Shown here in pieces: positions 1,448 to 45,516 of a stretch of 64,000 bases of DNA. The notes beneath the pieces were generated by a model. That model was not told the origin of the DNA, made no database searches, and saw only the letters and a program-made list of their open reading frames with translations. Numbering within the stretch: the stretch's first letter is position 1; each line of letters opens with the position of its first letter. Location: the NCBI GenBank assembly GCA_038229875.1, contig JBBROA010000004.1, positions 161-64,160 of the forward strand. The letters run 5' to 3'. The translations under genes were made by a program, and so were the position numbers. Origin of the DNA: Thermoanaerobaculia bacterium (GTDB taxonomy: Bacteria; Acidobacteriota; Thermoanaerobaculia; UBA5066; Gp7-AA6).

Positions 1448-1834
1448 ATGAAGCGAGTCACTGGCATCGGCGGCATCTTTTTCAAGGCAAAGGATGCCTC
1501 TGCGCTGCAGGCCTGGTACAAGCGTCATCTCGGCATCGCTGTCCATGCGTGGGGCGGTGCCAAGTTCGACTGGACCGACTCGGATGGCAGGCCCACAGGC
1601 GGAACGACCGCCTGGCTCGTTGCTCCGGAGGAAAGCAAACAGTTTGCTCCAAGCGAAGCCTCGTTCATGGTCAACTACCGCGTTGAAGACCTTCACGCTC
1701 TGATCGCAGCGCTCAAAGCGGAAGGCTGCAACGTCCTCGACAAGATAGATGACTCTGAGTACGGCAAGTTTGGCTGGGTCATCGATCCTGAGGGAAACAA
1801 GGTCGAATTGTGGCAACCACCTGCGGGTCAGTGA
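1448..1834 (+). CDS. VOC (glyoxalase/bleomycin-resistance) family protein
   Basis: 128 aa; GIGGIFFKAKD...GWVIDPEGNKVELWQP is typical of small VOC-fold proteins. GGAGG sits upstream of the ATG. Confidence 0.85.
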   Translation: MKRVTGIGGIFFKAKDASALQAWYKRHLGIAVHAWGGAKFDWTDSDGRPTGGTTAWLVAPEESKQFAPSEASFMVNYRVEDLHALIAALKAEGCNVLDKIDDSEYGKFGWVIDPEGNKVELWQPPAGQ

Positions 1835-2111
1835 AATGCGCCTACGCTCCCTTCGGCAGTTCGGCGGCCTGAACCTTCGCGGCAGCCACCGACGGGCGTT
1901 CGGCCACCACACACACTCGATTGAATGCGACGAGACCAAGGGGATACGCAGTCCAGCCAGGGCCCTGGGTCCGAGCAACCACTCCACCTCAAGGAGGCTC
2001 CCCAGGCACGCGAGGAGCGCCGACCTCGCGAGCGGATGCTGAAGCAGCGAACGCGCTGATGGCCCCGACACGTAACAGCATGGTCGAAACTCGGCGGGGA
2101 AATTAGGTTCG

Positions 2112-2720
2112 ATGGGGACGGGAAGACTCGAGGCATTCAGTGACGGCGTGATGGCGATCATCATCACGATCATGGTGCTCGAGCTGAAGGTCCCGCACGG
2201 CGCCGATTTCGCGTCGCTTCGGCCGCTCATCCCGGTCCTCCTGAGCTACGTGCTCAGTTTCGTCTACATCGGGATCTACTGGAACAATCATCACCACATG
2301 CTCCACGCGACGCAGCGTGTCAGCGGCTCCATTCTGTGGGCGAATCTTCATCTTCTGTTCTGGCTGTCGTTGGTGCCGTTCGCGACCGGGTGGATGGGCG
2401 AAAACCATTTTGCGCCGGCGCCCACCGCTCTCTATGGGGTTCCTCTCCTCATGGCCGCGATCGCCTACTGGCTTCTTCAGCGCGCAATCCTCTCGCACCA
2501 GGGCAGCGGCTCGATCCTGGCGGAGGCGATCGGCAGGGACGTCAAGGGCAAGGTGTCTCCCGTCCTTTACGTGCTCGCGCTTTCTTTGGCGTTTGTCAGC
2601 CCATGGATCGCGAACGGCATCTACGTGGCGGTCGCGTTGATGTGGCTCGTTCCGGACCGACGCATCGAGAGAATGTTGCAGTCCACGGAGAAGCCTTCAG
2701 AACATCCACGACGAGGTTGA
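2112..2720 (+). CDS. TMEM175/DUF1211 family potassium-channel-like membrane protein
   Basis: N-terminal RLEAFSDGVMAIIITIMVLEL motif and a second repeat with YWNNHHH, characteristic of the TMEM175 family. Confidence 0.85.
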   Translation: MGTGRLEAFSDGVMAIIITIMVLELKVPHGADFASLRPLIPVLLSYVLSFVYIGIYWNNHHHMLHATQRVSGSILWANLHLLFWLSLVPFATGWMGENHFAPAPTALYGVPLLMAAIAYWLLQRAILSHQGSGSILAEAIGRDVKGKVSPVLYVLALSLAFVSPWIANGIYVAVALMWLVPDRRIERMLQSTEKPSEHPRRG

Positions 2721-3136
2721 GACGCTGGTCCGGTTCCGGGCCGCCCCGCTCACCGTCCGCGAAACCTTCGACCGGCTCTCGCATCGCCCCGCTGAGAGGA
2801 CCGCTGAGGAATCCGCTCGAACGCCAGAAGACCCTTGGATCGAGGTCCATCGCCCGCCCGTGGCAGGGGCGGTGCGTCCCGCCTTTCCTCAGCCCGCGAG
2901 ACGATCCAGCCCTGTGTACGCTTGTGTCGCGGGCTCGACGCGTGCCGCAGGTGTCGTGTGGCTGCGAGGTCGCCTGGGCGGCATGACGGCGATCAGCTAG
3001 CGAATACCCCGGGCGGCGCTGCCTGAGTCCTGCGCGCAAGAGTTGTTACGGCACGCTTGCGAAGACGACCGGCTGATGGTTTGAGCGTGGCGACCGCGGC
3101 GCAGAAGCCCCACGGCTCGCACAGAGCCCGCCTCGC

Positions 3137-3518
3137 ATGCACCTGTACTTTGCGTTCGCCGCGATCCTCGCTCTGTTGGTCGGGGTTGCGCACTCGGTGC
3201 TGGGCGAACGGAGGATCTTTCGGAATTTGCGGAGAGGAGGCCTCGCGCCGACGGAGGGGGGAACACTGCTGAGCGAGAGGCAGGTACGAATACTCTGGGC
3301 AAGCTGGCATGTGCTCACGGTTTTCGGTGGGAGATGGCGGCAATTCTCGTATGGCTCTCATTTCATTCATGGCTTCCAGCAGCACGGCCCCCCCGGAGCA
3401 GGCAATCGCAGTCTCCAGGCTCATCGGGTCGCTGCTGGTCTTCGTCGGAACCAGGGCAAAGCACCCCGGGTGGGTTGGTTTGCTCGGCGTCGCCGGGTTG
3501 GTCTGGTTCGGCCGGTAG
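3137..3518 (+). pseudogene. small 4-TM membrane protein, apparently disrupted by two frameshifts
   Basis: TM1-TM2 are in frame 3137 (MHLYFAFAAILALLVGVAHSVLGE...WASWHVLTVFG). A plausible continuation WEMAAILVWLSF lies in a second frame, and AIAVSRLIGSLLVFVG...GLLGVAGLVWFGR* in a third. The second switch coincides with a C7 run (3377-3383). Confidence 0.35.
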
Positions 3519-3543
3519 CGGCCTGCTGAACTCGTTCGGGCAG

Positions 3544-4515
3544 TTATCGCGAGCTCAGCCGCGTGCGGGCCTGATCGCCGCCAGCCTCCGCGGCGGCCGT
3601 GAGCAGCAGCCCGCGTTGAGACGAGCCGCGCAAGGCGTCGATCAGGTCGTCGACCACCGGTGAGCGATGCGCGGAAGGCGCGACCACGGCTCGCAACACC
3701 ACGCAGGGCAGCGCGGGACTGACGTGCACCTCGGCGAGCACGCTGTCTCGCAGCTCCGGCTCGACGGCGTGCTCCGGCAAAAGGCCGAGCGCCGTCCCTC
3801 CTGCCAGGATCCCGCGCTTCACACCCTCGATCGTGCCCATCGCCTGCATCCGCGGAGGCGGAACCCCGGCCGCCTCGAAATGATGCCGCAGCGTCTGATG
3901 GTAATTGCCCCCCGCGTCGCACATGTAAAAGTCGCAGCGGCGCAGGGCGTCCGCCGCGGCCATGCCACGCGCCAGCGGGTGAGTGGCGGCGCCGAGGATC
4001 AACAGGCGCGCCTTCGCCAGGATCGAGCCGGCGCCGGCCTCGGGCCCGGTCTCAGGCTCGAGCAACAGGCCGAGGTCGCTCTCGCCCGCGGCTACGCGCT
4101 CCCGGATTTCGCTGCAACTGCCGGTGACCACTTCCACGTGCACCGCCGGCCATCGGGCGCGAAGGGCGGCGAGTCGCGACGGGAGCACGTAGGCTCCGAT
4201 CGACTCGACGGCGGAGACCACCAGCGTGGCCTTGACGCGGGTCGACGCGTCAGCGAGCTCCCCGATGAGCTCGCTGCTCAGCGCGAACATGCGGCGCGCG
4301 TACCCGAGCAGGACCTCGCCAGACGACGTCAGCGCCGGCGCGCCCCTGGCCCCTTTGCGAAACAGGTCGACGCCGAGCGTGCGCTCGAGCGCGCTCAGCG
4401 TCTCGGAGACCGTCGACTGCGAGAGGCCGAGCTCTCGGGCCGCGCGCGTGTGGGTCCCGGCATCGACCACCGCCGCGAAGACCCGTAGGTGCCGTAGCTC
4501 CAGCTCGGTCTTCAC
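3544..4515 (-). CDS. LysR-family transcriptional regulator
   Basis: 323 aa; N-terminal LRHLRVFAAVVDAGTHTRAARELGLSQSTVSETLSALE HTH plus a LysR substrate-binding domain. Confidence 0.9.
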   Translation of the reverse strand: MKTELELRHLRVFAAVVDAGTHTRAARELGLSQSTVSETLSALERTLGVDLFRKGARGAPALTSSGEVLLGYARRMFALSSELIGELADASTRVKATLVVSAVESIGAYVLPSRLAALRARWPAVHVEVVTGSCSEIRERVAAGESDLGLLLEPETGPEAGAGSILAKARLLILGAATHPLARGMAAADALRRCDFYMCDAGGNYHQTLRHHFEAAGVPPPRMQAMGTIEGVKRGILAGGTALGLLPEHAVEPELRDSVLAEVHVSPALPCVVLRAVVAPSAHRSPVVDDLIDALRGSSQRGLLLTAAAEAGGDQARTRLSSR

Positions 4516-4553
4516 CGGGCGACGTTACCATCGGCCTCGCCAGCAGACAGCGT

Positions 4554-4574
4554 CCCATCGGCCTCGCCGATGGG
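4554..4574. promoter_or_regulatory. LTTR-type operator (ATC-N9-GAT inside the perfect palindrome CCCATCGG-N5-CCGATGGG)
   Basis: Lies in the divergent LysR/isochorismatase intergenic region. CATCGGCC half-sites recur at 4529, 4556 and 4578. Confidence 0.5.
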
Positions 4575-4622
4575 CGGCATCGGCCTTTTGGTGCGCGGGC
4601 GGCGCGCCCGTACGGTGGCGCC

Positions 4623-5216
4623 ATGCTCTCATTCGAATCGCACGCGCCCACTCTGCTGGTCGTCGATCTTCAGCTCGGTTTCGACGATCCGCGCTGGGGC
4701 CGGCGAAACAACCCGTTCCTGGAGGATCGTGCCTCCGACTTGTTACGCGCGTGGCGCACAGCCGGGCGCCCGGTCGTCCACGTGCGGCACATGTCGACGG
4801 ATCCATTGTCGCCGCTGCGGCCCGGTCAGCGCGGGAACGGCTTCAAGCCCGAGACGGCTCCCGGCGCCGGCGAGGCGGTGATCGAGAAGCGCGTCAACAG
4901 CGCCTTCATCGGGACGTCGCTCGACACCGATCTGCGGCGCGCCGGGTGCGCGGGGCTGGTGATCGTGGGACTCACCACGAATCACTGCGTCTCGACAACC
5001 GCGCGCATGGCCGGCAACCTGGGCTTCGCGACCTGGGTCGTGTCCGACGCAACGGCCACGTTCGATCGGGTTGGCCCCGACGGTGTCGAGTATCCCGCCG
5101 AGCAGGTGCACGCCATGGCGCTGTCGGACCTCCACGGCGAGTTCGCCACCGTGGTCGACACGGAGGCGGTGATCGGTGCGCTGCAGGTTCCCCGTTTCTC
5201 GAGGAGGGCGTCATGA
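4623..5216 (+). CDS. isochorismatase-family cysteine hydrolase
   Basis: LLVVDLQLGF...VIEKRVNSAF...LVIVGLTTNHCVSTTAR contains the D-K-C catalytic triad context of the isochorismatase family. Confidence 0.85.
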   Translation: MLSFESHAPTLLVVDLQLGFDDPRWGRRNNPFLEDRASDLLRAWRTAGRPVVHVRHMSTDPLSPLRPGQRGNGFKPETAPGAGEAVIEKRVNSAFIGTSLDTDLRRAGCAGLVIVGLTTNHCVSTTARMAGNLGFATWVVSDATATFDRVGPDGVEYPAEQVHAMALSDLHGEFATVVDTEAVIGALQVPRFSRRAS

Positions 5217-7279
5217 GGTTCGCGCGCATCGTGTTGGCCGTCGCGGCCGGGATCGCGCTTTTCGCGGGTGGCGCCCCGATTTCAGTCGCTGAAGAAGTTT
5301 GCCCGCCATCGGAGCAGGGCGCGGCGCCGAAAGGCATCGAGTCAAACGATTTGGATCGCGCCGCCGACCCGTGCACCGACTTCTACGCCTTTGCCAACGG
5401 CGGCTGGCGCGCCGCGAATCCCATCCCGGCGGGGAAATCGCGCTGGAGCCGGCGGTGGGCCGCTCGCGAGGCGAACCGGGAGCAGTTGAAGAATCTCCTC
5501 GAAGAGCTGGCCTCAAAAACGGATCGGCCCCGAGGAAGCGTCGAGCAGCAGCTCGGCGATCACTTCGCCGCGTGCATGAACGAGCCGGCGATCGACGCCG
5601 CGGGTGTGACCCCCCTGGCGCCGTTGCTCGCCGACATCGGCGGTGTCCGGGATCCCGCCGGCGTCCAGCGCATGATTCGGCGGCTGCATGAGCTGGCGGT
5701 CCCGGCTCCGTTCGTGGCAACGCGCGCGTTTGATTACCACGACCCTGCGAGCGTGGTCGTGAACATCGCCGCCGGCGGAATGGGGTTGCCTGATCGCGAC
5801 TCCTATCTGAAACCCGAGCCGCGCTTCGCCGAGGCGCGCGAGAAGTATCGGATGCACGTCGCCCGCGTTCTGACGCTCGCCGGAATGTCCGCCGTGCCGG
5901 CGCGGAAGGCCGCAGCCGGCATCCTCGGGCTCGAGACCCGCCTGGCCGAGGCGAGCCTGGAGCCCGCGGCGGCCGCCGATCCGGCCGCGACAGCGCACAA
6001 GCTGACCTTCGAGCAACTCTCGCAGCTCGCTCCGCGATTCGACTGGGAGAGGTACTTCGCAGAGGCCCGGCTTCCGCGGATCGATGTCAACGTTGCCGAG
6101 CCCGCGTTCGTCGAGCAACTGAACCGAGAGCTCGATGCGACGCCAGTGAAGGTGTGGAAGGCCTATCTGAAGTGGCACCTGCTCGAGTCGGCGGCGCCGT
6201 GGCTTTCGAAGCCCTTCGCCGACGAGTCCTTCGCCTTCCGCGACAAGTACCTGGGCGGCGCGGCCGCGGCAAAGCCCCGCGCGATGCGCTGTCTCGAATC
6301 GACGGAGGCATTGCTCGGAGAGCCCCTCGGCCGCGTGTACGCCGAGCGCTACTTTCCTCCCGCGGCGAAGGCAAAAGTTCAGGAGATGGTTCGTACCCTG
6401 GTCGCTGTTCTGAAGGAGGACCTCAGCGAGCTGAAGTGGATGTCCGACGCGACGAGGCAGGAGGCCCTCGCGAAAGTTCAGGCCTTTGAGGTGAAAGTGG
6501 GGTACCCCGACGCGTGGACCGACCACTCGGCGCTCGTCATTCGCCGTGACGCCTTCTGGGCCAACGTGGCCGCGGGCCGCCGCTTCGGAGTCGAGGCCGC
6601 GCGCCGACGCGTCGGGCAACGCACGAGCCGGGCGATCTGGGAACTGCCCCCGTCGTCACCCGACGCGTACATCGACATCCAGCTCGACCTGATGGCGTTG
6701 CCGGCCGGCTTTCTGCAGCCGCCAATGTTCGACCTCGTCGCATCGGACGCCGTGAATTACGGCGCGATGGGCGTCGGGATTGCGCACGACCTCACTCACG
6801 CGATCGACGCGCTCGGCGCCGACTTCGACTCGACGGGGCAGCCGCGGAAGTGGTGGACGGAGCCCGATCTCGACGCCTTCCAGAAGCTCGGCCAGTGTTC
6901 CGTCGATCAGTACGACGGCTACGACATCGAGCCCGGCGTTCACCTCCAGGGAAAGCAGGTCCTCGGCGAGGCGCTCGGCGACGCCGCCGGCGTGCGCCTG
7001 GCGTATCTGGCCCTCCAGCGTTCGATGCAGCGTCACCCGGTGCCTGTGATCGACGGCTTGAGCCCCGAACAGCAGTTCTTCATCGCGTGGGGCCAGTTCC
7101 GCGGCGCCGCCGAGAGCCTGGAGATGCAGCGTCAAATGGTCAAGACGGATACGCATCCGACCGCCAGGTACCGGGTGATCGGGCCGCTGTCGAATGCGCC
7201 GGAGTTCCAGAAGGCCTTCGCCTGCAAGGCCGGATCGGCCATGGTGAGGCCGCCCGAAAAGCGCTGCGCGGGTTGGTAG
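5213..7279 (+). CDS. M13-family (neprilysin/PepO-like) metallopeptidase, exported; zinc motif reads HDLTH
   Basis: ATG at 5213 overlaps the upstream stop (ATGA). Signal-like N-terminus; CTDFYAFANGGW, AHDLTHAID, GEALGDAAG and a C-terminal RCAGW are typical M13 landmarks. The upstream 4226-5212 part of the 1017-aa ORF is rejected. Confidence 0.9.
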   Translation: MRFARIVLAVAAGIALFAGGAPISVAEEVCPPSEQGAAPKGIESNDLDRAADPCTDFYAFANGGWRAANPIPAGKSRWSRRWAAREANREQLKNLLEELASKTDRPRGSVEQQLGDHFAACMNEPAIDAAGVTPLAPLLADIGGVRDPAGVQRMIRRLHELAVPAPFVATRAFDYHDPASVVVNIAAGGMGLPDRDSYLKPEPRFAEAREKYRMHVARVLTLAGMSAVPARKAAAGILGLETRLAEASLEPAAAADPAATAHKLTFEQLSQLAPRFDWERYFAEARLPRIDVNVAEPAFVEQLNRELDATPVKVWKAYLKWHLLESAAPWLSKPFADESFAFRDKYLGGAAAAKPRAMRCLESTEALLGEPLGRVYAERYFPPAAKAKVQEMVRTLVAVLKEDLSELKWMSDATRQEALAKVQAFEVKVGYPDAWTDHSALVIRRDAFWANVAAGRRFGVEAARRRVGQRTSRAIWELPPSSPDAYIDIQLDLMALPAGFLQPPMFDLVASDAVNYGAMGVGIAHDLTHAIDALGADFDSTGQPRKWWTEPDLDAFQKLGQCSVDQYDGYDIEPGVHLQGKQVLGEALGDAAGVRLAYLALQRSMQRHPVPVIDGLSPEQQFFIAWGQFRGAAESLEMQRQMVKTDTHPTARYRVIGPLSNAPEFQKAFACKAGSAMVRPPEKRCAGW

Positions 7280-38034: not shown

Positions 38035-38517
38035 ATGACGGACTTCGATCGTCTCTTCTCCTACGAGCACTGGGCCAATCGCGAGGCGCTCGCGTCGGTT
38101 CGAGCCGCAGGCTCTCCTCCAGAGAAGGCCCGGAAGATCCTCGGGCACCTCGTCGGAACGGGCCGCCTCTGGTTGTCGCGCATCGAAGGGACGGAGAAGC
38201 CCGCGATCTGGCCCGACCTTTCGGTCGACGAGTGCGCGGCGGGTTTCGACGACCTCGCCGTCCGGTGGGCCGCGCTTCTGAGCCGGCCGACGCCGGAAGA
38301 TCTGTCGCGCGTCGCGACCTACACGAACAGCAAGGGAGAGCCGTGGTCGAGTTCCGTGTCTGACATCCTGACGCACGTCGTTTTTCATTCCGCGTACCAC
38401 CGCGGCCAGATCGCGACCGTGATGCGCGAGGCGGGATTCGAGCCCGCGTACACGGACTTCATCGAGGCGGCGCGGCGGGGGAGGCTTGACCGGACCCGGA
38501 CTTCGCCGTCTGCGTAG
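38035..38517 (+). CDS. DinB-family (damage-inducible DinB-like) protein
   Basis: LFSYEHWANREAL...ILTHVVFHSAYHRGQIATVMR. Confidence 0.85.
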   Translation: MTDFDRLFSYEHWANREALASVRAAGSPPEKARKILGHLVGTGRLWLSRIEGTEKPAIWPDLSVDECAAGFDDLAVRWAALLSRPTPEDLSRVATYTNSKGEPWSSSVSDILTHVVFHSAYHRGQIATVMREAGFEPAYTDFIEAARRGRLDRTRTSPSA

Positions 38518-38601: not shown

Positions 38602-38626
38602 CCCTCTCCCGGGCACGGGGAGAGGG
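38602..38626. repeat. REP-like palindrome CCCTCTCCC-N-GGGGAGAGGG preceded by TCACCCAA
   Basis: The same arm sequences occur at 32791-32826 (opposite orientation) and 49765-49790. It abuts the transposon target duplication. Confidence 0.7.
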
Positions 38627-38634
38627 ATAGACCG

Positions 38635-38652
38635 GGTAGTGGTCTAGTTTGA
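38635..38652. repeat. terminal inverted repeat (one end), flanked by target duplication ATAGACCG at 38627-38634
   Basis: Exact reverse complement of 42111-42128. Confidence 0.9.
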
Positions 38653-38653
38653 G

Positions 38654-40138
38654 CTAGGCGAGCTTGCGGGCGAGCTGTTCCTCAAGGATTTCGGTCACGG
38701 TCAAGGGGATGATGATCCTGCCCGAACGACGGAAGAAGCCATCGACTTCTTTCAGCGCGTCAGACGTGAAATCGAAGGCCACGAAGAAGCCCTTCTTCCT
38801 TTCCTCTCGGATCATGGCGGCCTCGAAGCTGTCTATGTCTGGCCGTCCCGCCCGATCCTTCTGCTTCACCTGGATGGGATACCAGTCGTCCATGAAGCCG
38901 AGTCCTGCCGTCTCGCCGTCCCGGACCTCGCTGGCCTTCTTCGGAGTGGCCGAGACGGGGAAAACTCGACCGTCAATCCCCATGTCTCCGACTTGAGCCT
39001 TGTTCGGGATTCCGCCGAGCGCGATGACCGCCCAGTTCTCAAACTCAAATGGCGGGATTTTGCGGAGCTGCGACTCGCTCCACGGCAGATCACGCACGAC
39101 GAAGCCGCGTCCGGCCTTCCAGAGTTTCTCGTCCTCGCGCAAGGTAGTCTGATCGCGAAGCCTCTTCGCCATGACGCGGCAGGCGGTCGGGGAAACGTCG
39201 ATCCCGATCCACTGCCGCTTGAGGTTCTCCGCCGCAAGTAGGGCGGTCCCACAACCGCAGAAGGCGTCGAGCACAACGTCATTCTCGTTTGTGCTCGCCC
39301 GGACGATCCGGTCGAGAAGTGCGAGCGGCTTTTGTGTCGGGTAGCCGAGACGTTCCGCCGCCTGTGAGTTGATCGGAGGGATGTCAGTCCAGATCGAATC
39401 GATTGATTTTCCCTCCTGCTCGTCAAGGAATCGCTTAAAGCGCGGAACGGCCCCCGGTCGAGGTTGCACGATCAGGCCTTTCTCATACGCCTCCTGCATC
39501 CGCTCTCTCGTCCAGCGCCAGACGCGGGTAACGCCGAGGAATTCGTAGGTTAGGTTGGGGCGGTCAGCCGCCGGATTGAGAAGACTCGTGAGTTGATACC
39601 GCCGATCTTCGGCATCGCGTAACGAGTATTTCGCGTCGGTCTTGTTATCCAAGTTGGCGGCGTCGTACCTGATGTAGGGTCTGTTGAAGGTTAGCTCGGC
39701 TCCGCCGCCGTAATAGAAGATCGAGTCGTGATTGTTTGGAAAGCCGGTATACGCGAGCCCCTTCGAGAGGTTGCGCCGCCAGATGATCTCGGTGTGAAAC
39801 TGGTTCTCCCCAAAAATCTGGTCGAGCATGACCTTGACGTAGTGGCTCGCGTGCCAGTCACAGTGGTAGTAAAACGAGCCGGTCGGTTTCAGCACGCGGG
39901 CCAGCTCGACGCAGCGCGGGCGCATGTAGTCGATGTAAGCGCGCGTCGGTTCGTGGCGATCCTCGAACGCGCGTTTCTATTTGGTCTCGCCCCAGAAGAC
40001 TTCGTAATTGCGGTTGGAGTTGAACGGCGGGTCGATGTAGACCAGATCGACGCAGCCGTCTGGGAGCTTCCGAAGCTGATCGAGGCAGTCCCCGCAGTAG
40101 ATGACGCGGGTATCAACGAGAGCAGAGCGTCTGGTCAA
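38654..40138 (-). pseudogene. beta-class (DPPF...FxGxG order) N4/N6 DNA methyltransferase fused to a C-terminal Mrr/PD-(D/E)xK-like nuclease domain, interrupted by an in-frame TAG
   Basis: Manual translation upstream of ORF 38654-39925: (TTG 40138) TRRSALVDTRVIYCGDCLDQLRKLPDGCVDLVYIDPPFNSNRNYEVFWGETK*KRAFEDRHEPTRAYIDYMRP... The TAG is at 39979-39977. VLDAFCGCGT motif I. Tail contains GDMGIDG...IQVKQK. Confidence 0.7.
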
Positions 40139-40161
40139 GATCTGGTCGGCAGTCTAGCAAA

Positions 40162-41022
40162 TCAGGCCGTCCTAGCTAATGGCGTCCGCTCGGCCAGCGA
40201 GACTAAATCCTCGACGCTCCAAAGGGTTTTGCTCAACCCTGCTGCCATCGCGGGGGAGCATCGGAGCGTCTTGTGCATCCGGCAGAAGTTGTAGTGCGTG
40301 AACTGAATCGCGAGCGCGAAGCAGTGATTCTCGAACTTCTTCGAGAAGCCATTCGTTAGGCGGGTGAAGCGCCGGTTGCCCATGCGGATCGTCAGGTTCG
40401 CCCGCTCAACGAAGCTGGTCGAAATGTTCTGGTCCCTGGGCGCGCCGAGAACCGGGATCTTTTCCAGTCCCACCAACCGCCCTGGCGAATAACGGGTTTC
40501 TGGCTGCCCGTCGTTTCCACAAGGACCGTAAGTCTTCAACAACACGCCGTAGTCAATTCCCCGCGTCGGAAACTTCTCGATGATCGCAGAGAGATACGCC
40601 GAGCGCCCGTCCGTCGTAAGTTGGACGCGGCCCGCGAGCCGTTCCGCAAGGTCGCCGATGAAGACGCGGGCATCATCGAGCGTCCGCTGTCCGACGTGCC
40701 AGGAGATCATCAGCTTGGAATCCGCGTCGAGCGCCGTCCACGTCCAGATGGAGCCAACGTCGCGGCGGGCGCGCATTTCGGCGGGAAGGTTCCGGTCCTT
40801 CGCGTAGCAGAAGGACCAAAGCTCATCGCATTGAACCTTCTCCGAGTTGACCTGTCTAACCGTCGAATCGTGGTAAGCGAGGCAGGCTGAGCCAACATCG
40901 CTAAGGAGTTTCAGGACCGTCATTTTCGCAACGCCCGTCATACGGCACGTCGCGTTGATCGACGTGCCCTCGACAAGAGCGGCGATCACCTGGGCGCGTT
41001 GTTCAGTGCTCAGCTTGTTCAT
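40162..41022 (-). CDS. IS1-family transposase (single-ORF type)
   Basis: N-terminal HTH (EQRAQVIAALVEGTSINATCRMTGV), CDELWSFCYAK, WTWTALDADSKL, QLTTDG, ERANLTIRMGNRRFTRLTNGFSKK...HYNFCRMHKTL. Confidence 0.75.
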   Translation of the reverse strand: MNKLSTEQRAQVIAALVEGTSINATCRMTGVAKMTVLKLLSDVGSACLAYHDSTVRQVNSEKVQCDELWSFCYAKDRNLPAEMRARRDVGSIWTWTALDADSKLMISWHVGQRTLDDARVFIGDLAERLAGRVQLTTDGRSAYLSAIIEKFPTRGIDYGVLLKTYGPCGNDGQPETRYSPGRLVGLEKIPVLGAPRDQNISTSFVERANLTIRMGNRRFTRLTNGFSKKFENHCFALAIQFTHYNFCRMHKTLRCSPAMAAGLSKTLWSVEDLVSLAERTPLARTA

Positions 41023-41028
41023 GGGAAT

Positions 41029-41057
41029 AGTATGCTTGAGCGGTCAAGTATAGTCAA
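41029..41057 (-). promoter_or_regulatory. putative sigma70-type promoter of the transposase (TTGACT-17-CATACT). The predicted start site coincides with the ATG, so the mRNA would be leaderless.
   Basis: The -35 is at 41057-41052 and the -10 at 41034-41029, 6 nt before the ATG at 41022. No Shine-Dalgarno sequence. Confidence 0.35.
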
Positions 41058-41208
41058 GTAGAATGTCGGGGCCGAGAGACGGAGCGCGCCTGGCAAGGGA
41101 CAACGCTCCGGCCCTCTGGAAAAAACCCCTTCTTGATCTTGGGGGCGGGCGAGGTAGAATATGGATGAAGCCGTGCTCGGGTCGCGTAGTGGCCTCCTGG
41201 GCTCGGGT

Positions 41209-41279
41209 TGGTGGAGCTAGTCGGAGTCGAACCGACCGGAATCGGGTCCAGAAGCCTCTTCCGGCAACCTGCTAGCCCC
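41209..41279 (-). ncRNA. tRNA-Ala/tmRNA-like minihelix: acceptor stem with G3:U70, canonical T-arm, A73 and encoded CCA, but no D or anticodon arm
   Basis: Minus-strand RNA: GGGGCUA-GCAGGUUG-[CCGGAAG AGG CUUCUGG]-ACCCGAUUCCG-[GUCGG UUCGACU CCGAC]-UAGCUCC-A-CCA; 71 nt. Confidence 0.45.
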
Positions 41280-41292
41280 GCTTAGTTCTCAA

Positions 41293-41334
41293 AGAGGAGT
41301 CGAGGCGGTCTTGACCGGCAGCCTCGACTCCTCT
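41293..41334. terminator. 14-bp perfect hairpin (AGAGGAGTCGAGGC / GCCTCGACTCCTCT), T-run on the plus strand, immediately 3' of the minus-strand HARE-HTH gene
   Basis: Read directly. CCTTTTTG follows on the plus strand. On the minus strand only UUU follows before the tRNA-like element. Confidence 0.6.
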
Positions 41335-41348
41335 TCCTTTTTGATTGG

Positions 41349-41756
41349 CTATTGCCTCCTCTGATCCAACAGGCCAAACGTGCTCGGCGCAGGTCGGTAG
41401 AAAATCCTCTTCAGCTTGACGTACCTGGACAGGCCGCCTACGAGCGTGTTTTTCTTGGTCCGGTGACCTCCGGCCTCTAGCCGTTTGAGAATCTCTTGGA
41501 TCTTGAGCGGCCTTCCGGCCTCCCGCAAGATCGCGACGGTCAGGCCGATGCCGGAAGTGGGGACGATCTCTCGGCCATCCCGAGAGAGCTCGATGGCGGG
41601 CGCGGCCTTTTCTTGGGTCTTTCTCGAAACTGCGGGCACTTGGCCGCTCGCCGCCCCTCGGTCGGTCAATTCCCCGCGGGCTTCATCCAGTTCTTTTTGA
41701 AGCTGCGCTATCTGCGCCTTCTTGTGGCGAATAAGATCGATCAAAGTCTCTGACAT
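41349..41756 (-). CDS. coiled-coil + HARE-HTH-like winged-helix protein
   Basis: N-terminal heptad-like helix (LIRHKKAQIAQLQKELDEARGEL). The C-terminal LTVAILREAGRPLKIQEILKRLEAGGHRTKKNTLVGGLSRYVK....STFGLLD resembles the HARE-HTH module. Confidence 0.55.
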   Translation of the reverse strand: MSETLIDLIRHKKAQIAQLQKELDEARGELTDRGAASGQVPAVSRKTQEKAAPAIELSRDGREIVPTSGIGLTVAILREAGRPLKIQEILKRLEAGGHRTKKNTLVGGLSRYVKLKRIFYRPAPSTFGLLDQRRQ

Positions 41757-41818
41757 GCAACTACTCTATGCCCTCTGCGATCCGAGCGCAAGAGCTACTG
41801 CATCGAAACTGTGATCGG

Positions 41819-42061
41819 CTACGAACTGTTGGGTTTACGGAGTTTAGCCCAGCGTGTGCGAGCGGCGTCCTTCGCTATTTCTCTTTTTCGCTCAGTTGAA
41901 AGGGCTGCCGCACGCGCCTTTCCACCCTTTAGCCCCCCCAGCCGCCCAAGAGCTACGGCTGCCGGATTCTTCTCGGGGAGTGCGTCGCGCGTCACGCTGT
42001 CTAAGATACGTTTCGCGGCCTGATTCTCGTCCTCTGGGGGCGTCCTTGACCGCTTAGGCAT
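41819..42061 (-). CDS. small basic protein with GGxKGGKARAxxLSxExRxEIAxxAAxxRW motif
   Basis: 80 aa from the ATG at 42061 (the ORF track offers a TTG at 42097). The motif is common in phage and plasmid small ORFs. Confidence 0.5.
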   Translation of the reverse strand: MPKRSRTPPEDENQAAKRILDSVTRDALPEKNPAAVALGRLGGLKGGKARAAALSTERKREIAKDAARTRWAKLRKPNSS

Positions 42062-42110
42062 GGCCTCACGGTAGCACCGGGGCGGGAGCTGGGGCAAGGG
42101 GGCCGACAGG

Positions 42111-42128
42111 TCAAACTAGACCACTACC
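42111..42128. repeat. terminal inverted repeat (other end), flanked by target duplication ATAGACCG at 42129-42136
   Basis: Exact reverse complement of 38635-38652. Confidence 0.9.
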
Positions 42129-42136
42129 ATAGACCG

Positions 42137-42165
42137 TTGACTTACGCCCCTTTTACGCCATAAGT
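42137..42165 (+). promoter_or_regulatory. putative sigma70-type promoter of dnaE2 (TTGACT-17-ATAAGT). The -35 box directly abuts the transposon target duplication.
   Basis: TTGACT at 42137-42142 and ATAAGT at 42160-42165. The spacer contains the direct repeat TTACGCC x2. The GTG of the long ORF is at 42172. Confidence 0.4.
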
Positions 42166-42171
42166 TCAGGT

Positions 42172-45100
42172 GTGGACAAGCACAAGCGCTCCCGTCCCTC
42201 CGACTCCCCGCCGGACGGCCCTCCGTCGCGGGACCTCGTGGGCCCGCTGGTCGGGCAGATCGTCGCGGCGGGCGCGCGCAAGGAAGGTCTCCGGCGCCGG
42301 GACTGGCGGCCCTCCCCCGCTCCTGGCCCGCGCCCATACGCCGAGCTTCGCGCCGCCTCGGCGTTCTCCTTCTTAGACGGTGCGTCGCTTCCTGAAGACC
42401 TCGTCGAGGAGGCCGCCCGCTGCGGGCTTCCCGCTGCCGCGCTGATCGACACGAACGGGGTTTACGGCGCTCCTCGTTTCTACAAGGCCGCGAAGGCTGC
42501 CGGCGTCCGCGCGTTGGTCGGCGCCGAGGTTGTGCTCGACCGGCCACGTCCCGCGACCGTGACCGCGTCCCGCCGCCCAATCAGGACAGTCCGGACAGCC
42601 CGGACATCTCCGGCGCCGGCGGGAGAGCCGGCCCGCCTGACCGTTTTAGTCGAGAGCCGCGCCGGGTATCGCAACCTCTGCCGCCTCCTGACGGCGGGAG
42701 CGCTCGGGAAGAACAAGGGCGAGGCGTTCGTCTCCGGCGCGGCGGTTTCCGAGCACGCGGAGGGACTGCACGTCCTTTCGGGAGGAGACGAGGGGCCGGT
42801 CGCGCGCGCGCTCGCCGCGGGAGGTTTCGACGCCGCGCGCGCGGAGCTCGAGCGCTGGAGCGCGATCTTTCCGGGGCGCTTTCACGTCGAGCTCCAGCGC
42901 CACGGCCTGCGCGAGGAGGAGCATCGCAATCACGCGCTCGTGTCCCTGGCCCACACGCTCGGGCTCCCGATCGTCGCGACGAATGGAGTGCGATACGCGC
43001 GCCGCCGCGACAAGGAACTGCACGACGTCTTCACCTGCATCCGAAACAAGACGACTCTGGACGCGGCCGGCAGGCTCCTCGCGGCGCAGCGGGGGCGTCA
43101 CGTGAAACACGCGCGCGAGATGGCGGCGATCTTCGCGGACATCCCGGAAGCGCTCGACCACGCGTGGGAGCTCGCGGGTTCTCTCGACTTCACGCTCGCG
43201 GACCTCGGCTACAGGTTTCCGGAGTACCCGCTGCCTCCGGGCGAGACCCCGCAGTCCTTTTTGAGGCAGGTCTCCTGGAACGGGGCGCGCGGGCGGTTCC
43301 GGCCCCTGACGGCGCGGGCGCAGGCTCAGATCGAGCGGGAGCTCGCGATGATCGAGAAGCTCGACCTCGCCGGCTATTTCCTGATCGTGTGGGACATCGT
43401 GCAGTTCTGCCTGCGGGAAAAGATCCTCGTCCAGGGGCGCGGATCCGCGGCGAACAGCGCGGTCTGTTACGCCCTCTCGATCACCGCGGTCGATCCCGTC
43501 AAGATGGAGCTGCTCTTCGAGCGCTTTCTCTCCGAGGAGCGAGGCGAGTGGCCGGACATCGACCTCGACCTCCCCTCGGGGGACCAGCGCGAGCGCGTGA
43601 TCCAGCACGTCTACGAGAAGTACGGGCCGCACGGCGCCGCGATGACGGCGAACGTCATCACGTACCGCGACCGCTCGGCCGCGCGCGAGGTCGGGAAGGC
43701 GCTCGGGTATTCGGCGGAGCAGGTAGACCGGCTCTCCAAGCAGCTCGCGACGTGGAACTTCGGGGAGATTCGCAGCCCCTTAGAAGAGCTGTCGGGAGAA
43801 GTCGCCGCCGCGGGACTCGACCCGGACGACGTGCGGACCCGCCACTTCCTGCGGCTGTTTCTCCAGATACAGAATCTGCCGCGGCACCTCGGCCAGCACT
43901 CCGGCGGAATGGTCGTCGCGGCGGGACGGCTCGACGAAGTGGTGCCGCTCGAGCCCGCGTCGATGCCGGGCCGCGTCGTCGTGCAGTGGGACAAGGATGA
44001 CTGCGCGGACCTCGGGATCGTCAAGGTGGATCTGCTGGGGCTCGGGATGCTCGCCGCGCTCGAGGAGGCAATCCCGATGATCCGGACGCACGAAAGGATC
44101 GAGGTGGATCTCGCGCACCTGCCGGCCGACGATCCCGAGGTGTACCGGATGATGAACGAGGCGGACACCGTCGGGGTCTTCCAGGTGGAGAGCCGCGCGC
44201 AGATGGCGTCGCTTCCGAAGAACGCGCCGCGCAAGTTCTACGACCTCGTCGTCCAGGTCGCGATCATCCGGCCCGGCCCGATCGTCGGCGGGATGGTGCA
44301 TCCGTTCTTCGACCGCCGGCAGGGAAAGGCGCCGGTCGAGTACGCGCACCCGTGCCTCGAGCCGATCTTAAAGCGCACGCTGGGAGTTCCGCTCTTCCAG
44401 GAGCAGCTGCTGCGGATCGCGATGGTCGCGGCGGGCTTCACCGGCGGCGAGGCCGAGGAGCTGCGCCGCGCGATGGGGTTCAAGCGATCGATGGAGAAGA
44501 TGGAGTCGATCGAGGCGCGCCTGCGCTCGGGGATGGCGGAGCGCGGGATCGACGGGCCGGCCCAGGACCAGATTGTGAAGTCGATCACGTCGTTCGCGCT
44601 CTACGGGTTTCCGGAGTCGCACGCGGCGAGCTTCGCCCTGATCGCGTACGCGAGCGCGTACATCAAGGCCCGGCATCCCGCCGCGTTCTACACCTCCCTC
44701 TTGAACGCGTGGCCGATGGGCTTCTATCACCCGGCGACCCTCGTCAAGGACGCGCAGCGGCACGGCACCCCGGCGTTTCCCATCGACGTGACGCGCTCGG
44801 GATGGAAGTGCCGGTGGGAGGCGGGAGGGGTGCGGATCGGCATGCGATTCGTGCAGGGACTGCGCGAGGCAACCGGAAAGCGGATCGAGGCGGAGCAGGA
44901 GAAGGCGCCGTTGGCGGGCGTCGAGGACCTCGCGCGCCGCTGCACGCTCCGTTCGGACGAGCTCGACCGGCTCGCGCAGGCAGGTGCGCTGGCATCTTTC
45001 GGGCGGGGCCGCCGGGCGGCGCTGTGGCAGGTCGCGAAAGTGGCGCGGCCGGCGGGAGAGCTCTTCGCCTATCTTCCCGCCGACGATCCCTCGCCTCTCC

Positions 45101-45516
45101 GGGAGATGTCCGCGGTGCAGGAGACCGCCGCCGACTATCGGGCGACATCGATGACAACGGGCCCGCATCTCGTGCAGCACTGGCGCGAGCGGCTGTCCGC
45201 GCAGGGGATCTTCTCCGCCGCGGAATTGAAGGCGATGCCCGACGGGCGCCGCGTGAAGACGGCGGGAGCGGTGATCGTCCGGCAGCGGCCCGGGACCGCA
45301 AAGGGATTCGTGTTTCTGACGCTCGAGGACGAGACCGGCATGTGCCAGGCGATCGTGCGGCCGGATCTCTTCAAGGAGCAGCGCGCGATCATCGTCGGGT
45401 CGGGGTCCCTGATCGTCGAAGGCCGGCTTCAGAACGACGGCACGCTCTCGGTGCGGGCGGAAAAGTTCTGGCCTCTCCAGGAAGTCGAGACGGTCCCGAG
45501 TCACGACTTCCGATAA
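42172..45516 (+). CDS. dnaE2: error-prone DNA polymerase III alpha-subunit paralog DnaE2 (ImuC)
   Basis: PYAELRAASAFSFLDGAS PHP N-terminus, polymerase core, and a C-terminal OB fold ending ...LSVRAEKFWPL. Size is about 1060-1110 aa. The true start is uncertain. Confidence 0.85.
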   Translation: MDKHKRSRPSDSPPDGPPSRDLVGPLVGQIVAAGARKEGLRRRDWRPSPAPGPRPYAELRAASAFSFLDGASLPEDLVEEAARCGLPAAALIDTNGVYGAPRFYKAAKAAGVRALVGAEVVLDRPRPATVTASRRPIRTVRTARTSPAPAGEPARLTVLVESRAGYRNLCRLLTAGALGKNKGEAFVSGAAVSEHAEGLHVLSGGDEGPVARALAAGGFDAARAELERWSAIFPGRFHVELQRHGLREEEHRNHALVSLAHTLGLPIVATNGVRYARRRDKELHDVFTCIRNKTTLDAAGRLLAAQRGRHVKHAREMAAIFADIPEALDHAWELAGSLDFTLADLGYRFPEYPLPPGETPQSFLRQVSWNGARGRFRPLTARAQAQIERELAMIEKLDLAGYFLIVWDIVQFCLREKILVQGRGSAANSAVCYALSITAVDPVKMELLFERFLSEERGEWPDIDLDLPSGDQRERVIQHVYEKYGPHGAAMTANVITYRDRSAAREVGKALGYSAEQVDRLSKQLATWNFGEIRSPLEELSGEVAAAGLDPDDVRTRHFLRLFLQIQNLPRHLGQHSGGMVVAAGRLDEVVPLEPASMPGRVVVQWDKDDCADLGIVKVDLLGLGMLAALEEAIPMIRTHERIEVDLAHLPADDPEVYRMMNEADTVGVFQVESRAQMASLPKNAPRKFYDLVVQVAIIRPGPIVGGMVHPFFDRRQGKAPVEYAHPCLEPILKRTLGVPLFQEQLLRIAMVAAGFTGGEAEELRRAMGFKRSMEKMESIEARLRSGMAERGIDGPAQDQIVKSITSFALYGFPESHAASFALIAYASAYIKARHPAAFYTSLLNAWPMGFYHPATLVKDAQRHGTPAFPIDVTRSGWKCRWEAGGVRIGMRFVQGLREATGKRIEAEQEKAPLAGVEDLARRCTLRSDELDRLAQAGALASFGRGRRAALWQVAKVARPAGELFAYLPADDPSPLREMSAVQETAADYRATSMTTGPHLVQHWRERLSAQGIFSAAELKAMPDGRRVKTAGAVIVRQRPGTAKGFVFLTLEDETGMCQAIVRPDLFKEQRAIIVGSGSLIVEGRLQNDGTLSVRAEKFWPLQEVETVPSHDFR

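Follow-up and report, generated by a model that had tools for sequence, protein, structure and literature searches.

What separates a DinB-family gene from the error-prone DNA polymerase gene dnaE2 in a Thermoanaerobaculia bacterium, and what placed it exactly there? In the stretch of 64,000 nucleotides from contig JBBROA010000004.1 (assembly GCA_038229875.1) that was analyzed, hereafter the window, a segment of 3,494 bp at 38635-42128 lies between the two genes (38035-38517, and 42172-45516 with dnaE2 profile NF004225 at 1232 bits). The segment is very probably a single intact transposable element from a large and mainly environmental IS1-related clade; its subclade homes beside SOS-type operators, and the element carries a tRNA-like RNA under selection. 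The closest host relative was a Thermoanaerobaculia (Acidobacteriota) genome bin, and the flanking DinB protein grouped with proteins of Acidobacteriota bins.

The element ends in an 18-bp sequence, GGTAGTGGTCTAGTTTGA, and its exact reverse complement. A search with GGTAGTGGTCTAGTTTGA allowing up to three mismatches gave two matches in the window, namely, both termini (0.00 expected from shuffles), and no further copy of the element. The 8-bp sequence ATAGACCG occurs exactly twice in the window, each time directly outside one terminal repeat. Both termini start with GGTAGTG, which fits the GGnnnTG rule for IS1 ends, and the G+C content is 0.58-0.62 within the element versus 0.66-0.72 in the flanks. 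A preliminary description of this DNA had already reported the inverted ends, the direct repeat at both ends, the lower G+C content, the minus-strand location of all listed genes and the fit to IS1-type ends with an 8-9-bp duplication, and each of these statements was reproduced.

Close transposase homologues were inspected on their own contigs, which are designated L001, L002, and so on. The preliminary description had proposed a check for other copies with the same ends; when it was run, the 18-bp repeats proved to be genuine element termini elsewhere, bounding elements at unrelated sites in L002, L003, L037, L038, L163, and, with one end seen, L165, each with its own 8-bp duplication (Table 1). 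Ten further elements from distant relatives (33-60% transposase identity) have related ends (GGTAsTG...) and 8-bp duplications, and the duplication is perfect in all 15 related elements with both ends seen. The length of all 16 delimited elements is 2.0-4.6 kb, so the earlier statement that IS1 members above about 1.2 kb with passenger genes are rare does not hold for this clade, where large size is the rule. L001, an identical 1.1-kb metagenome contig, spans the transposase region only. The whole 3.5-kb unit moved as one piece, as had been proposed, because the duplication flanks the outermost ends; the same composite order of parts is present in the diverged L165 element. The perfect ends, perfect duplication, and lower G+C content are compatible with a recent insertion. 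At the approximately 78% identity that separates the window and L165 elements, both 8-bp copies would seldom be preserved unchanged.

The landing site is marked by a landmark outside the element. Alignment of the flanks revealed the motif (TTGA)CTTRCGC-N5-TTDCGCC, in which the unit YTTACGCC is repeated directly every 11 bp and which has the form CTTACGCC-N3-TTTACGCC in the window. In nine elements (window, L002, L003, L037, L038, L040, L008, L163, and L165), the duplication ends exactly 4 bp from the first repeat, and this offset is kept whichever way the element is oriented and although the duplications are unrelated in sequence. There is one occurrence of the motif in the 64-kb window, and among 40 loci it was present next to these elements only. 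L163 has three family members in tandem beside the recA box (1595-5500), each separated by the same 8 bp, GGGGTCCG, which means that one 8-bp target was hit three times. The insertion in the window leaves the dnaE2 promoter intact. The transposase would bind the 18-bp ends (GGTAGTG...) and join them to a target whose strands are cut 8 bp apart, thereby producing the ATAGACCG duplication, a catalysis proposed from the chemistry of the family. The recognizer of the operator could be the transposase, an accessory protein, or a repressor-DNA complex.

The nature of the landmark was addressed by scanning metagenome contigs for TTGACTTACGC-N5-TTACGCC, which gave at least 120 loci. In the listed loci, the motif reads as a promoter with TTGACT, a 17-nucleotide spacer holding the repeats, and TAnnnT. 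The repeats overlap the -35 and spacer part of lexA, recA, imuA, and dnaE2 promoters of soil bacteria. Among the matches listed (at least 120), the first gene downstream encoded an ImuA/RecA-like protein in 46 cases, an XRE-type helix-turn-helix (HTH) protein in 21, DnaE2 in 12, and LexA in 7, followed by radical SAM proteins and others; the seven LexA proteins have Peptidase_S24 and LexA_DNA_bind domains. A transposase was present at none of the at least 120 matches listed. Next to the elements themselves, the motif neighbors recA in L163 and a PA0069-family radical SAM gene in L002. In Alphaproteobacteria and Acidobacterium, the LexA box is the direct repeat GTTC-N7-GTTC. The box of Balneolaeota, TTACACATATTTTWTACATA, is also of the direct-repeat type, and LexA proteins that bind direct repeats and control regulons of this composition are documented (PMC7739468). 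From this regulon pattern and precedent, the motif is read as the SOS operator of these Acidobacteriota, and the YTTACGCC direct repeat is a candidate LexA box of the group. It resembles the known direct-repeat boxes in a spacing of about one helical turn and in the kinds of gene that follow it (lexA, recA, genes for translesion polymerases, and one for a radical SAM protein), and differs in its unit, YTTACGCC.

Several further observations concern the surroundings of such sites. End-to-end relics of 24-33 bp, or a stray end, lie beside the box at 4 of the at least 120 motif loci. These mini elements, with the left end joined to the right end, recur independently beside SOS-type boxes in L060/L072 (about 41 nucleotides upstream of the motif), L140, and L106; that of L140 has its own flanking duplication. 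They could be deletion derivatives or excision products. In the L163 stack, the middle element is only 766 bp long, and the first carries a HicA/HicB toxin-antitoxin pair with a cloverleaf tRNA-like gene (anticodon ACU). A tandem left end is present in L038, and an old right-end relic abuts the duplication in L013. The distant member L014 (5013-5121; 4.3 kb, same end sequence) was inserted next to a host tRNA-Ser gene, about 10 nucleotides from its 3' end, and not at an SOS-type box, and the L017 and L025 elements are positioned just upstream of TTGAC-type -35 hexamers. On the dinB side of the window insertion, a hairpin, CCCTCTCCC-N6-GGGAGAGGG (38603-38626), runs right up to the duplication, so the insertion sits between a terminator-like stem and the dnaE2 promoter.

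The second feature that sets the element apart is the RNA. Its predicted fold comprises an acceptor stem of 7 bp that includes the G3:U70 pair, followed at the 3' side by A73 and an encoded CCA; a linker in which GG is preserved, without a D-stem; a long arm with a helix of 5-6 bp, two more G-C pairs, and the loop Y-U-CUG-G-A; and a canonical T-arm. Thirteen elements, located at unrelated genomic sites, have it in the same position and on the same strand, upstream of the transposase gene. When five copies were used to build a covariance model, it matched L039 and L165 at this position and in this orientation and gave a weaker match in L025. In seven sequences, 133 of 133 cells pair and 10 of the 19 pairs, in three helices, are changed on both sides. 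Fitting the alignment to the model favors the structure; compensatory changes can also be read directly from the raw sequences. None of 500 shuffles reached the observed level, and sliding the partners left 35-57% paired. G3:U70 is invariant in all seven window-type sequences, while positions 4, 6, and 7 of the acceptor stem change, and it is also found in L025 and L027; A73 is shared by the window type and L025, with G73 in L027. The window copy is called neither by ARAGORN (tRNA and tmRNA) nor by Rfam at the gathering score, including the tRNA family RF00005; its best Rfam match, to the transfer-messenger RNA (tmRNA) family RF00023, covers the 3' half only at 16.8 bits (cut-off 47). The tRNA-like RNA noted earlier can nevertheless be regarded as a real conserved structure and, on the evidence of covariation, it is a selected one. 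In deeper relatives, a full cloverleaf gene holds this place, ahead of the transposase gene and on its strand (Table 1), and no such RNA was found in four relatives, L009, L013, L016, and L017.

The acceptor stem has the features of alanine identity (G3:U70, A73, and the CCA end), and the RNA may be charged with alanine. The RNA may be handled by tRNA enzymes, namely, RNase P, RNase Z, the CCA-adding enzyme, and alanyl-tRNA synthetase, which is a best guess of low confidence, and the effect of such handling would be a cut or mark in the transcript at a point that separates the accessory genes from the transposase gene. Recoding to alanine was considered and rejected. Codons matching the "anticodon" of each element are not at alanine positions of the homologues: CAG is aligned with Gln, and ATA with either Ile or Val. 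L008 and L027 have some odd AGT positions, which give the impression of decay. RNA-guided targeting, in which the apical loop pairs with 7 nucleotides of the end (GGTCTAG, with one wobble, by eye), was dropped, as the pairing fails in L040, L025, and L014. Additional cloverleafs on the strand opposite to the transposase gene were observed in L037 (1384-1458), L038 (2820-2894), and L020 (4746-4820), with 53-57 bits for Rfam tRNA; their anticodon loops differ between homologous copies (AGC versus CGC).

In comparison to known tRNA-like systems, the RNA shares the acceptor stem with G3:U70 and A73, the UUCGANU T-arm, and the reduced D region with the tRNA-like domain of tmRNA, with mascRNA (RF01684), and with phage tRNA genes. 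Weak tmRNA matches were obtained for L003 and the window and a weak mascRNA match for L039, and deeper relatives score above the Rfam tRNA cut-off. Unlike tmRNA, it has no mRNA-like domain or tag and lies inside an insertion sequence (IS) rather than at a chromosomal tRNA or tmRNA locus. The "anticodons" vary by clade (CUG/UUG, ACU, GCU, UAU, and UGG), while the alanine identity pair is mostly kept.

The transposase connects the element to IS1. Its sole NCBIfam match was transpos_IS1 at 51.6 bits (cut-off 100), and the Pfam match was DDE_Tnp_IS1 at 19.4 bits (cut-off 24.1), IS1 models being the only transposase models matched. Many of the at least 7642 homologues have PF03400 and many are named "IS1 family transposase" (JGI or NCBI), as are plasmid relatives at about 50% transposase identity; H2, the closest annotated plasmid record examined (52.9% identity), bears no element name. 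Across 117 aligned homologues, 61 columns are conserved at ≥97%, and the window protein retains every one of them, including D66, D138, and E206; by these residues the gene looks intact and functional. An IS1-like single-ORF transposase had been proposed: the intact single open reading frame (ORF) of 286 amino acids stands, while IS1 membership draws on sub-threshold profile hits and on homologue names. The family is defined by a length of 740-1180 bp, an 8-9-bp duplication, GGnnnTG ends, and a DDE transposase (PMC10425158). The window element agrees in its ends and duplication, its DDE transposase gives profile matches to IS1 models only, below the curated cut-offs, and it differs in its 3.5 kb (2.0-4.6 kb in the clade), its single ORF without frameshift, and the absence of the InsA zinc finger from this copy; the clade adds a conserved small protein, the tRNA-like RNA, and a sequence-specific target. 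With 3,494 bp, one transposase ORF, and at least three further genes, it is excluded from the classical IS1 group with its two frameshift-joined ORFs by length and layout. It is a new member of an abundant long branch, probably of the IS1 family, that is undescribed as far as we found. ISfinder also lists single-ORF and long (ISMhu11-type) IS1 subgroups, to which the clade may belong.

The predicted transposase promoter contains a conserved palindrome, CTTGAGCGGTCAAG, at 41035-41048. Ten of its bases, AGCGGTCAAG, are repeated in inverted orientation at 42045-42061, over the start codon of the small basic ORF, and both copies are invariant in L002 and L003. They could serve as two operator sites, or they could pair with each other over a long range in the RNA.

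The ground plan of the clade is left end, small basic protein, variable ORF, tRNA-like RNA, transposase, and right end. The gene for the small basic protein is located at the left end of at least 10 elements (window, L002, L003, L037, L038, L040, L009, L013, L017, and L162), and its homologues, at least 7979, are all named "hypothetical". No informative match was found for it, or for the 135-181-amino-acid ORFs, in Pfam, NCBIfam, PHROGs, PADLOC, or a PDB profile search; the small protein had no Pfam or PDB match at all. The slot between the small protein and transposase genes holds an unrelated ORF of 150-181 amino acids in L002, L003, L037, L038, and L040, HicAB in L163, nothing in L165, and the HARE-HTH-like gene in the window only. 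The L162 element, with the end GGTAGTGGGTCAGTTTGAAAA, has a small ORF and then a different methylase. The 2.4 kb of passenger DNA counted in the preliminary description is therefore only partly cargo: the small basic ORF and the tRNA-like RNA belong to the conserved parts of the family, the methylase counts as variable cargo, and the HARE-HTH-like ORF is unique to this copy, its domain match remaining below threshold (23.7 bits, cut-off 25.9). Likewise, of the methyltransferase-nuclease fusion described there, the methylase part is clear (N6_N4 methylase domain, E = 2e-37), and the nuclease part is a sub-threshold Mrr_cat match (18.8 bits, cut-off 21).

At 39977-39979, the methylase reading frame is interrupted by an in-frame TAG; at this position, the orthologues in L002 and L165 encode Glu (GAG). 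Because the catalytic DPPF motif precedes the next available start codon, the methylase is inactive in the window copy and, judged from its reading frame, is a pseudogene. With this stop codon, Mrr_cat below the cut-off, and no separate endonuclease gene, the locus does not correspond to a type II restriction-modification system. In the window and L165, the methylase gene follows the transposase gene; L002 has it in inverted orientation at the left end, and in L038 it comes next to the small ORF, on its downstream side. In L002, L003, L037, and L038, the right end and the transposase stop codon overlap; in the window, this place holds a degenerate relic of the end (40144-40164), and the functional end lies 1.5 kb further, past the methylase. 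L165 has the same relic and the same order of transposase, relic, and methylase at 78.5% identity to the window, and the composite is thus an old one, mobilized as a unit on more than one occasion. A methylase segment, bringing a perfect end of its own, would have been added outside the old right end; the longer unit would now transpose whole, and the methylase would later have been killed by the nonsense mutation.

Table 1. Coordinates of the features of the window element, of related elements, and of cloverleafs in deeper relatives.
Feature	Contig	Positions	Strand	Remarks
Target-site duplication, left copy ATAGACCG	window	38627..38634	.	one of two window copies; abuts end
Right terminal inverted repeat (IRR) GGTAGTGGTCTAGTTTGA, functional; transposase/methylase end	window	38635..38652	+	also bounds L002, L003, L037, L038, L163, and L165 elements
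Beta-class N4/N6 DNA methyltransferase with C-terminal Mrr-like domain	window	38654..40138	-	variable cargo; in-frame TAG
Degenerate ancestral right-end relic TGATTTGCTAGACTGCCGACC, directly after transposase stop codon	window	40144..40164	-	position of functional end in L002, L003, L037, and L038
Single-ORF DDE transposase, 286 amino acids, N-terminal HTH; distant IS1-family relative	window	40162..41022	-	profile matches, homologues, conserved columns
Promoter-like site TTGACT-17-CATACT (predicted), ends 7 nucleotides ahead of transposase ATG	window	41029..41057	-	block invariant in L002 and L003
Conserved tRNA-like RNA GGGGCUAGCAGGUUGCCGGAAGAGGCUUCUGGACCCGAUUCCGGUCGGUUCGACUCCGACUAGCUCCACCA	window	41209..41279	-	pairing conserved, 0/500 shuffles
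Perfect 15-bp hairpin between HARE-HTH ORF and tRNA-like RNA	window	41292..41335	-	probably a terminator or the 3' end of the upstream gene; homologous hairpins with altered stems in L002 and L003
135-amino-acid ORF, sub-threshold HARE-HTH/winged-helix match	window	41349..41756	-	specific to window copy
Small basic protein, conserved start MPKRSR, motif KNPAAVALGRLGGLKGGKARA..LS...R.EIAK.AA..RW	window	41819..42061 (ORF 41819-42097)	-	family-wide accessory gene
Left terminal inverted repeat (IRL), accessory-gene end	window	42111..42128	-	exact reverse complement of GGTAGTGGTCTAGTTTGA
Target-site duplication, right copy ATAGACCG	window	42129..42136	.	one of two window copies; abuts end
SOS-type promoter/operator of dnaE2 (candidate): TTGACT, repeats CTTACGCC and TTTACGCC 11 bp apart, then ATAAGT	window	42137..42165	+	outside element
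Element, duplication CGTTTTGG	L002	4181-7877		window-type ends, ≤1 mismatch
Element, duplication TGAACCGG	L003	5154-7876		window-type ends, ≤1 mismatch
Element, duplication GGGCCATC	L037	517-3393		window-type ends, ≤1 mismatch
Element, duplication CGGGCGCC	L038	128-4719		window-type ends, ≤1 mismatch
Element, duplication GGGGTCCG	L163	1595-4710		window-type ends, ≤1 mismatch
Element, duplication TCCCGGAG	L165	left end at 3636		window-type ends, ≤1 mismatch; one end seen only
Cloverleaf, anticodon ACU	L014			Rfam tRNA 67.7 bits (cut-off 29)
Cloverleaf, anticodon ACU	L027			Rfam tRNA 53.1 bits (cut-off 29); G3:U70
Cloverleaf, anticodon UGG	L040			Rfam tRNA 50.8 bits (cut-off 29)
Cloverleaf, anticodon GCU	L008			Rfam tRNA 46.7 bits (cut-off 29)
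Cloverleaf, anticodon ACU	L163			ARAGORN call only; HicAB between cloverleaf and transposase gene

The segment could alternatively be two neighbors, a 2-kb core insertion sequence and a separate methylase fragment with a stray end, whose outer repeats merely mimic termini. The relic directly after the transposase stop codon, the different position and orientation of the methylase among L002, L038, and the window, and the existence of stacked or nested family members (L163, L038, and L013) would all suit such an arrangement, which is nevertheless unlikely: the 8-bp duplication surrounds the outer ends and not the relic, the relic has no terminal CACTACC, and the old composite in L165, which moves as a unit, has a different duplication. 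Two neighbors would thus describe the origin of the element and not its present state. A very unlikely alternative is membership in IS6/IS26, with movement by cointegrate formation. GGnnnTG ends and an 8-bp duplication are common to IS6/IS26 and IS1 (PMC6807381), and several homologues have a precomputed match to PF13610 (IS240-type DDE) besides PF03400. The window protein itself matched only IS1 models in Pfam and NCBIfam at E ≤ 0.01, PF13610 not being among them, annotated relatives at 50% identity are named IS1 family, and the deeper relative L027 begins with an InsA-like CxxC...CxxC finger.

The same kind of weighing applies to the site and to the RNA. A family member is present in the gap upstream of dnaE2 in four related genomes (window, L003, L165, and L162), as a single ancient insertion, inherited vertically with no target preference and no recent event, would leave it. 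This history is highly improbable, because the duplications are entirely different (ATAGACCG, TGAACCGG, and TCCCGGAG), each seen pair being perfect, the orientation in L162 differs, the 4-bp offset is found also beside recA, a radical SAM gene, and other genes, and L163 took three successive hits in one target. The differing duplications and orientations beside dnaE2 therefore indicate independent hits. Regarding the tRNA-like piece as inert debris with no role in the element, namely, as part of a tmRNA or tRNA gene that was picked up at an integration site, would agree with the weak tmRNA match as its sole Rfam match, with the missing ARAGORN call, and with the four relatives that are without any such RNA. 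It is an improbable reading in view of the constant position and strand in 13 elements, the 10 of 19 pairs changed on both sides with 100% pairing kept, and G3:U70, which never turned into G-C; moreover, the 5' acceptor strand is present, and a fragment from an attachment site would be without one.

The reading of one intact IS1-related element that homes beside SOS-type operators also has points against it. L164, L009, L020, L027, and others (33-59% transposase identity) are not beside the motif, and targeting is therefore a trait of a subclade. No empty site from the same species was found among the relatives of the dinB-side flank (two at 84-94% identity). The contig of L161 stops 21 nucleotides beyond dinB, and L162, with 84% identical dinB-side synteny, has a different family member in the opposite orientation in the dinB-dnaE2 gap (3139-4244). 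Among the at least 120 motif-bearing metagenome loci, empty boxes occurred only in more distant organisms; the empty site reconstructed for the window locus is GGGGAGAGGGATAGACCGTTGACTTACGCC. LexA is proposed as the binder from the regulon only, and the XRE-type regulator, frequent downstream, could bind instead. The IS1 profile scores are below the curated cut-offs, and the element, with one ORF and no InsA zinc finger, is three to four times the size of classical IS1. The predicted transposase promoter lies downstream of the tRNA-like RNA, which weakens a simple model of co-transcript processing. For transposition, the transcript, and protein-DNA binding, the support is entirely comparative.

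Site-specific or repeat-homing DDE elements include Tn7 with its attTn7/TnsD pathway, IS1397 and ISKpn1 in repetitive extragenic palindromic (REP) sequences and bacterial interspersed mosaic elements (BIME), and IS4321 and IS5075 in Tn21 ends. The window element is like Tn7 and the repeat-homing insertion sequences in its fixed distance from a recognized and still intact sequence, which offers a harmless landing site in many genomes. It differs from Tn7 in that no TnsD-like targeting protein is identifiable in the element, and from both in that the landmark is an operator array (SOS-type box) rather than a gene end or a repeat palindrome and in that both orientations are used. The literature searches gave nothing specific on passenger genes carried by IS1 elements, on insertion sequences with tRNA-like RNAs, on insertion targeted to SOS boxes, or on the TTACGCC motif, and no counterpart of an alanine-pair tRNA-like RNA conserved inside an insertion sequence was found in Rfam 15 or the searchable literature.

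As an insertion sequence, the element is routine; the homing at a fixed offset and the conserved tRNA-like RNA lift it above this. A bolder proposal, which we hold only tentatively, is that the clade has true site-specific homing to LexA/SOS operators, reading the array, bare or repressor-bound, and inserting 4 bp away, and that its life cycle depends on the element-encoded, alanine-identity tRNA-like RNA, which might, for example, help to process transcripts or link the expression of the transposase to enzymes that handle tRNA. If true, this would be a DDE insertion sequence combining regulatory-site homing with a dedicated structured RNA. A by-product is a candidate SOS box, the YTTACGCC direct repeat, for a poorly studied group of Acidobacteriota. 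The targeting places the element next to the mutagenesis and repair genes of its hosts, dnaE2 and recA. Few DDE insertion sequences have exact, sequence-defined landing sites, and the clade is a natural system for how a simple transposase is aimed.

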